Assembly: GCA_964016885.1 (NCBI GenBank) | Contig: CAXHJY010001017.1 | Span: 29,531 to 93,530, forward strand | Direction: 5' to 3' | Length of the DNA: 64,000 nucleotides | DNA from: Eledone cirrhosa | Taxonomy: Eukaryota | Part shown: one piece after another, positions 24,730-24,920 of the stretch | Layout of the letters: the number at the start of each line of letters is the position of its first letter | How positions within the stretch are numbered: position 1 is the first letter of the stretch | Translations under genes and position numbers: made by a program | Notes under the pieces: model-generated | Databases searched by the model: none | Told to the model about the DNA's origin: nothing | The model's input: only the letters and a program-made list of their open reading frames with translations

Positions 24730-24920
24730 GGAACAAGTATGGTCCCGACAGCAGAGCTCAAGCCGTTTCGACGGCTATTTCTGGACTGAAATAGCCGTCG
24801 AAACGGCTTGAGCTCTGCCGTCGGGGTCATACTTTTTCCTATTTCCCACTCTACTACCCTAAGTATTGAGTACTCTGGTGTGTTATGGTCCATCTGGTTC
24901 CTTACCACAATTCCTTTATT
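24730..24920. mobile_element. Palindromic half-hammerhead element (copies at 48480-48666 and 50472-50660; relatives at 26497-26575 and 48116-48214)
   Basis: ~50-bp arms followed by a shared ~85-bp tail; arm reads GAA-ACGGC..GCCGU-C-GGGGUC. Confidence 0.8.

Follow-up and report, generated by a model that had tools for sequence, protein, structure and literature searches.

PLE insertions with an inverted, 5′-truncated copy, a tail of 30–40 bp on one end and a bias towards (TA)n targets have been described (PMC8557442). In the accessible text of PMC11167929, the tail lies between two start sites of reverse transcription, both target strands are cut and extended, and hammerhead cleavage is dispensable in vitro. 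Palindromes have also been reported at inverted PLE junctions, with self-priming proposed as their origin (PMC3846280), and PLEs account for 6.83% of the genome of O. vulgaris (PMC13282606). How the inverted-copy structures form is stated to be an open question in PMC8557442 and PMC11167929.

The window analysed here, a stretch of 64,000 nucleotides from Eledone cirrhosa, has a GC content of 31% and is rich in microsatellites, with LINE-type RT ORFs. A preliminary description had listed four palindromic copies of one repeat in it. The palindromes are real, abundant repeat copies lying mostly within TA runs, but three of them carry a one-sided tail of about 75 nt, the one at 26497 belongs to a diverged subfamily (subfamily B), and a fifth copy had been overlooked. 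The 14-mer GCCGTCGAAACGGC, with up to three mismatches, has nine matches in the window against 0.21 expected. The copies at 24730, 48480 and 50473 start with GGAAC directly after (TA)n, continue through two arms of 52 nt that differ from each other at 4, 3 and 5 positions, respectively, and end, on the right side only, with the tail, which is followed by (TA)n; the build is arm-arm-tail, so none of them is a pure palindrome. The first copy consists of an inverted arm on the minus strand (24730–24787), whose outer end is the inner 3′ terminus (TTCCTAT, passing into (TA)n) and whose inner end runs on for 6 nt (TGGACT) into upstream template, a direct arm on the plus strand (24788–24839), which includes a segment resembling the 3′ half of a hammerhead (GAAAC, stem III, GTC and GGGGTC) at 24800–24828, and a plus-strand tail (24840–24919), which ends in (TA)n and contains the motif ACTC..TTGAGTAC at 24848–24873. 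Its two arms have subfamily alleles in common at columns 4, 29 and 42. The second copy has an inverted arm on the minus strand (48480–48533), a direct arm on the plus strand (48534–48585) with GAAAC at 48546, GTC at 48566–48568, GGGGTC at 48569–48574 and the inner 3′ end at about 48588, and a plus-strand tail (48586–48665) with the motif at 48594–48619 and the outer 3′ end passing into (AT)n. The energy of its hairpin, −92.2 kcal/mol (z score, −16), was equalled by none of 200 shuffled sequences. The third copy (50473–50659, plus strand) lies in (TA)n and comprises an inverted arm reaching to about 50525, a direct arm at about 50526–50579 and a tail to 50659.

The two subfamily B copies depart from this build. 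The one at 26497 (26490–26575, plus strand) has a long inverted arm, a centre within a 3-bp template hairpin and a short direct arm, with 20-bp arms and no tail; its right arm ends after GAGCTCA. In the fifth copy (48173; 48108–48213, minus strand), an inverted GAAAC segment (48162–48213) is fused to the terminal ~50 nt of the tail and forms no palindrome, and the inverted segment is missing from the copy's own direct part. Flanking (TA)n is found on both sides in three of the five copies and on one side at 48173, while 26497 adjoins (GT)n on its left; (TA)n microsatellites are the insertion sites of PLEs of the Hydra, Naiad and Neptune types. All five have a head-to-head inverted, 5′-truncated copy at the 5′ end, as EN+ PLEs do. 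The centres differ as the preliminary description stated, being TGGACT (24730), TG (48480), TCA (50473) and ATCCGAA (26497); given these differences and the alleles common to the two arms of 24730, its proposal that the copies arose in independent events is likely to be right.

This structure class, in which a PLE insertion combines an inverted 5′ copy and a palindrome at the junction with a tail on one side only, is already known. In the Hydra clade of EN+ PLEs (PMC8557442), which includes Hydra-1_Obim of Octopus, a preference for (TA)n is described for all six novel Hydra families, as is seen here, and the 3′ end has a hammerhead-type segment (GAA, stem III and NH) like that of the palindrome family. 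By eye, the tail stem-loop CTC..TTGAG(T/C)A of Hydra-2_Amil and Hydra-1_Amil resembles the tail of our family. Penelope-13_HM in the same paper carries a 5′-truncated inverted copy at its 5′ end, as here. The palindrome family differs from the Hydra clade in its ~75-nt tail, longer than the reported 30–40 nt, in having no linked ORF and in that no CUGANGA core was found, and the available 3′ end of Hydra-1_Obim is a different sequence. Four 11-mers of the family were absent from the accessible supplements of PMC8557442, PMC13282606 and PMC8967140, in which line breaks could mask a match, and a full-text search with four 14-mers matched only an unrelated fungal paper.

Among Penelope/Poseidon elements, Pen2a of Adineta (PMC3846280) and PAc of Anolis (PMC11167929) likewise have an inverted terminal copy, joined head to head and of lesser length than the direct copy, a junction palindrome, a tail on one side, two 3′ ends and an AT-rich target. 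In contrast to Pen2a and PAc, only the terminal ~130 nt were inserted here, and the insertions lie in a microsatellite, so target duplications are unreadable; PAc also has a complete, active hammerhead, unlike the palindrome family. Naiad PLEs (PMC8557442) show the same (TA)n target and inverted 5′ copies and have no canonical hammerhead. Eight Naiads, one of them from Octopus, carry an 'HHR_half_core', in which the first half (CUGANGA) is present, whereas in our family GAAAC is present and CUGANGA was not found. The non-LTR retrozymes, which are non-coding and thought to be derived from PLE terminal repeats (bioRxiv 10.64898/2026.07.22.740005), are described as tandem arrays in which every unit holds a complete type I hammerhead, whereas the palindrome copies are dispersed, single, inverted and core-less. 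No description of the palindrome family or of twin priming in PLEs was found in the literature searched, in which subscription journals were scarcely covered.

The retroelement origin put forward in the preliminary description is supported, and we consider it highly likely that the repeat is the inverted, truncated 3′ end of a PLE that targets (TA)n; its place among PLEs is perhaps near the Hydra clade. No RT or EN ORF linked to the family was found among the window ORFs, in contig collections or in the 30 letters upstream of the direct arm, and pattern scans of metagenome, genome and viral contig collections gave no family loci. The window RT ORFs that were scanned have RVT_1 together with matches to APE-type endonucleases and are LINEs unrelated to the palindrome family. 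A coding role of the repeat itself was rejected: about 44 codons can be read without interruption in each of the three main copies, but the upstream letters show, by eye, a stop ahead of this frame.

The window contains several other features. A LINE at 4636–9775, which we take to be L1/Tx1-like, has two ORFs, of which ORF2 (1156 aa) is open and matches Exo_endo_phos, RVT_1 and zf-RVT. A broken LINE at 44990–48110, consisting of endonuclease and RT pieces, is split by a SINE-like insert, and copy 48173 lies at its 3′ end. Beside (TA)n at 44240–44530 is a near-perfect hairpin of about 140 bp per arm without a CTGANGA core, with a shorter inner hairpin flanking its GTG centre. Four different minisatellite arrays occupy 29250–30850, 35400–37500, 49200–49780 and 59300–60800.

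Public sequencing records (4 of the 19 runs listed) were compared with positions 48480–48664 at 80% likeness. The family was represented by 17,774 contigs and 24,411 reads in organism A and by 3 records in organism B and 4 in organism E. Two alternative 3′ ends were apparent: 3438 reads pass into (AT)n after 48588, which is the inner 3′ end, and tail ends pass into (AT)n after 48655–48662, which is the outer one. Inverted arms stop at the first end and direct parts at the second, and such a pair of 3′ ends with an optional tail on one side is a feature of EN+ PLEs. The records also showed that TGGACT-type centres recur, with GACT inserted at a depth of 10,075 in six contigs and a TGGACA centre at a depth of 5,408. 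Junction counts from these records are biased, as 7183 RAD molecules of run X17 end at the AATT at 48535; the X17 library, and perhaps that of X1, under-samples AATT alleles, although two of the three X4/X9 records crossing the direct-arm start carry the AATT allele.

The inner end of the inverted arm falls within one patch of about 7 nt, 12–20 nt 5′ of GAAAC, in all five window copies, and the earlier expectation of non-random breakpoints is thereby borne out. Among the joints listed (15 of 30), 13 of 15 link 48534/48535 to a position within 48575–48622, so that direct parts restart at variable places. At most 7 letters lie between the two sides in 9 of the 10 listed rows from 48535 and in 12 of the 20 rows listed overall. 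This clustering is partly due to the reference used and to the shortness of the contigs, and many copies extend further upstream (88 contigs of run X1 and 2229 reads of run X17). The patch is self-complementary over 3–4 bp, and the hairpins that it can form explain the junction of 26497 and probably that of 24730; the junctions of 48480 and 50473 show 0–2 nt of microhomology. Cleavage of the RNA at GUC within the hot spot was considered as the source of the 5′ end and rejected, as several inverted arms extend 4–8 nt past GUC.

We somewhat favour the interpretation that the copies are 5′-truncated, 5′-inverted PLE 3′ ends formed by priming at two sites and head-to-head joining of the cDNAs. A PLE GIY-YIG endonuclease would cut the (TA)n target, and reverse transcription would start at two fixed RNA sites, one for each nicked (TA)n strand. 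The cDNA from the outer end would give the tail and the direct arm, and the cDNA from the inner end would give the tail-less inverted arm. The two may then anneal at the 3–4 bp self-complementary patch 5′ of GAAAC and be joined head to head, with a palindrome resulting where they overlap and an inversion-plus-deletion form where they do not. As judged from the structures of the copies and joints, two-site priming would account in one process for the palindromes, for the deletion forms and for the lack of a tail on the inverted arm. In the twin priming of L1, which is the analogy for this model, a 5′ inversion is accompanied by a deletion between the inverted and direct parts, the second cDNA is primed at variable internal sites, and the element ends in a poly(A) tail. 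Copy 48173 resembles such a product; our family differs from L1 in that the second start appears to be fixed and palindromic overlaps are common. Five of the 12 arm-arm mismatches coincide with common family alleles (p = 0.004 under a uniform background and 0.07 under a laxer one, and hot spots could mimic the effect), which is a weak hint of two templates. Two observations speak against two-site priming: both arms of 24730 have three subfamily alleles in common, for which snap-back is the simpler explanation, and the TGGACT-type centre recurs at high depth, as a snap-back hot spot or a palindromic master would predict.

A doubtful but still credible alternative keeps the same PLE origin and has the first cDNA self-prime at a small template hairpin with a stem of 3–4 bp and a loop of 6–7 nt, a process already proposed for PLE junction palindromes in the accessible text of PMC3846280. 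The centre of 26497 indeed lies inside a TAG-N7-CTA hairpin that is present in reads, for 24730 the corresponding hairpin would be TTC-N6-GAA, provided that the template carried the C variant (a joint with CTGA is present), and the arms have subfamily alleles in common. However, snap-back copies only what the first cDNA contains, and thus 48173 and the deletion joints (13 of the 15 listed) are beyond its reach; the deletion-type copies would need another route. Under self-priming, resolution by the endonuclease would trim the tail off the second arm. The constant inner terminus at which the inverted arm stops would call for an additional cut, and the low microhomology at the junctions of 48480 and 50473 also disfavours self-priming. 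More improbable is a palindromic non-autonomous master that was formed once or a few times and that a PLE then multiplied as a whole in trans. The outer ends are identical in three copies and the TGGACT and TGGACA centres recur at the depths given above, as such a master would predict; yet the three copies have three centres, all of which are accounted for by run-on into upstream template, the reads include many non-palindromic forms, and neighbouring families have the same build with other centres.

The segment GAA-ACGGC..GCCGT-C-GGGGTC of the palindrome family fits the 3′ half of a hammerhead, although the pattern alone is expected about five times per window by chance. GAAA, stem III and the NUH triplet of a type I hammerhead are present at 24800 and 48546. 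The tail motif, written as ACTC-N8-18-WGAGTRC, has 10 matches in the window against 0.33 expected for a pattern that was derived post hoc from the same sequences. Three of the matches are in the palindrome family and seven in neighbouring families, termed X, Y and Z, and five of these seven have a CTGATGA core 64–107 nt upstream. The spacing from GAAAC to the tail motif is 48 nt in the palindrome family and 45–49 nt in family X. We therefore regard the GAAAC/stem III/GUC segment as a likely hammerhead relic, the core half of which is either gone or located upstream of GAAAC by more than 42 nt. In a possible alternative register, assigned by eye, TTTAGTCC matches stem III of family X and the GC-rich block is a later insertion. 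The alignment of the palindrome family with family X is modest, its score being reached by 2–200 of 2000 shuffles in six comparisons, and six control hammerhead tails aligned to the palindrome family showed no likeness. A type II or III hammerhead was considered and rejected, as the tail is without CTGANGA. An Rfam search gave no hammerhead match in the rows listed (150 of 482) or in local scans, which likewise missed the complete cores at 24451 and 48307, so that this negative is uninformative; its miRNA matches were below the gathering scores and are attributable to hairpins and (TA)n.

Families X, Y and Z have the same arm-arm(-tail) build as the palindrome family. Family X (53705–53897, 44020–44160, 11745–11970 and 24445–24560) has a hammerhead core of the 'ctgatgat..tgaa' type and inverted 5′ copies; its copy at 53828 has, by eye, a complete hammerhead of this type, which is also listed for Hydra-clade PLEs, that was overlooked by the descriptor scan, and at 53.8 kb the inversion centre immediately precedes CTGATGA between perfect arms of 54 bp. 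The descriptor scan found 10 other hammerheads, in families Y and Z and two further families. Family Y (33953–34345 and 19130–19431) has a complete type I hammerhead whose stem II region measures 36 nt and is represented by one palindrome with 142-bp arms and a tail and one inversion-plus-deletion copy. Family Z (55899–56160, 52784–53201, 31735–31960, 32980–33135 and 55461–55675) has hammerheads with stem II regions of about 30 nt, two of the copies being long palindromes. Further hammerhead-like families lie at 48232–48402, 54340–54556, 38700–38850, 40600–40755 and 15618 (cores at 48307, 54458, 38755, 40681 and 15618, respectively). A common end sequence of about 65 nt adjoins (TA)n at 11560–11630, 48684–48750 and 60906–60975, and at 11.6 kb it is continuous with a family X tail.

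According to the preliminary description, the copies are mirrored about the loop of a hammerhead stem II: in full-length copies, GACGGCUA would form stem II of a complete type I hammerhead, and cDNA snapping back there would remove CUGANGA. The absence of the CUGANGA half from the copies was confirmed, as the window's 48 CTGANGA sites all fall outside the copies, tails included, and no such core was found 5′ of the stem II strand. The mirroring about stem II, in contrast, was an interpretation that the records contradict. In the unfolded contigs (88 of X1) and reads (2229 of X17) that cross the direct-arm start, the upstream letters end in TTTAGTCCA; the same ending was seen in all three of the seven X4/X9 records (organisms B and E) that cross this point, and in subfamily B 1989 reads have upstream letters ending in TTAGTTCGGATC. 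The predicted GACCCC-CUGANGA directly 5′ of GACGGCUA was not found, and CTGANGA was not seen in the 30 upstream letters of the loose-end rows listed (the best 20 of 400), that is, up to 42 nt from GAAAC in the main family and 38 nt in subfamily B. Since the upstream letters end in TTTAGTCCA or TTAGTTCGGATC and not in GACCCC-CTGANGA-GACGGCTA, the 12-bp 'stem II' is made by the inversion, and the type I pairing GACGGCUA/UAGCCGUC preceded by GACCCC-CUGANGA was not seen in the unfolded template of these rows. The GACGGCTA strand, read as the 5′ strand of stem II, is simply the inverted arm; the supposed loops TGGACT and ATCCGAA correspond, in reverse complement, to upstream template letters, into which the arm runs on.

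The stem II snap-back model thus fails its own test within the visible range, and we regard it as very improbable. In its favour, the 3′ half keeps the register of family X, long stem II regions (20–36 nt) are found in other hammerheads of the window, and a GGCTAA that could pair with TTAGCC lies, by eye, about 22 nt upstream in a single contig of organism B. Against it, besides the chance frequency of the bare 3′-half pattern, the predicted letters occur in none of the best 20 of 400 loose-end rows, a snap-back could not have made 48173, and the inversion centres of families X, Y and Z lie 0–4, ~12, 32 and ~52 nt 5′ of an intact core (with one deletion form at 19.1–19.4 kb), so fold-back at stem II is no rule in the window. 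As no core was seen within 30 upstream letters, the loss of the core need not be due to the fold-back. An inversion just 5′ of GAAAC yields a perfect false 'stem II' and is therefore a trap for annotation.

We also give very little credence to a DNA transposon derivative (a MITE or foldback element that has terminal inverted repeats and targets TA) or to an artefact of the assembly: the arm-arm unit does begin with GGAAC after TA and finish with TTCC before TA, and a tail-less 170-bp hairpin without a hammerhead core lies nearby at 44.3 kb, but the one-sided tail, variable centres, inversion-plus-deletion forms and a motif common to hammerhead families are at odds with a transposon, the ~75-nt tail extends beyond the right arm in all three full copies so that the inverted repeats are not at both termini of the whole element, and an artefact is disfavoured by arms that differ at 3–5 of 52 positions and by three contigs of X1 (which may be the assembly's own sample) that span the palindrome centre.

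The repeat is probably an ordinary product of how PLEs are thought to insert. The palindrome family supplies many young junctions with a hot spot of breakpoints, in palindromic as well as deletion forms, and a genome-wide junction map could distinguish two-site priming from self-priming without bench work. As a tentative and rather unlikely extension, a high-copy PLE without the catalytic CUGANGA half may keep the GC-rich GAAAC/stem III block as a structural signal, with RT stopping at the patch just 5′ of it and the cDNAs from both tail ends being joined there. If this is true, the second-strand step of PLE integration, which is still unsolved, would have left its natural record in a single genome in the form of thousands of junctions, and these would point to a non-catalytic role of PLE hammerheads.
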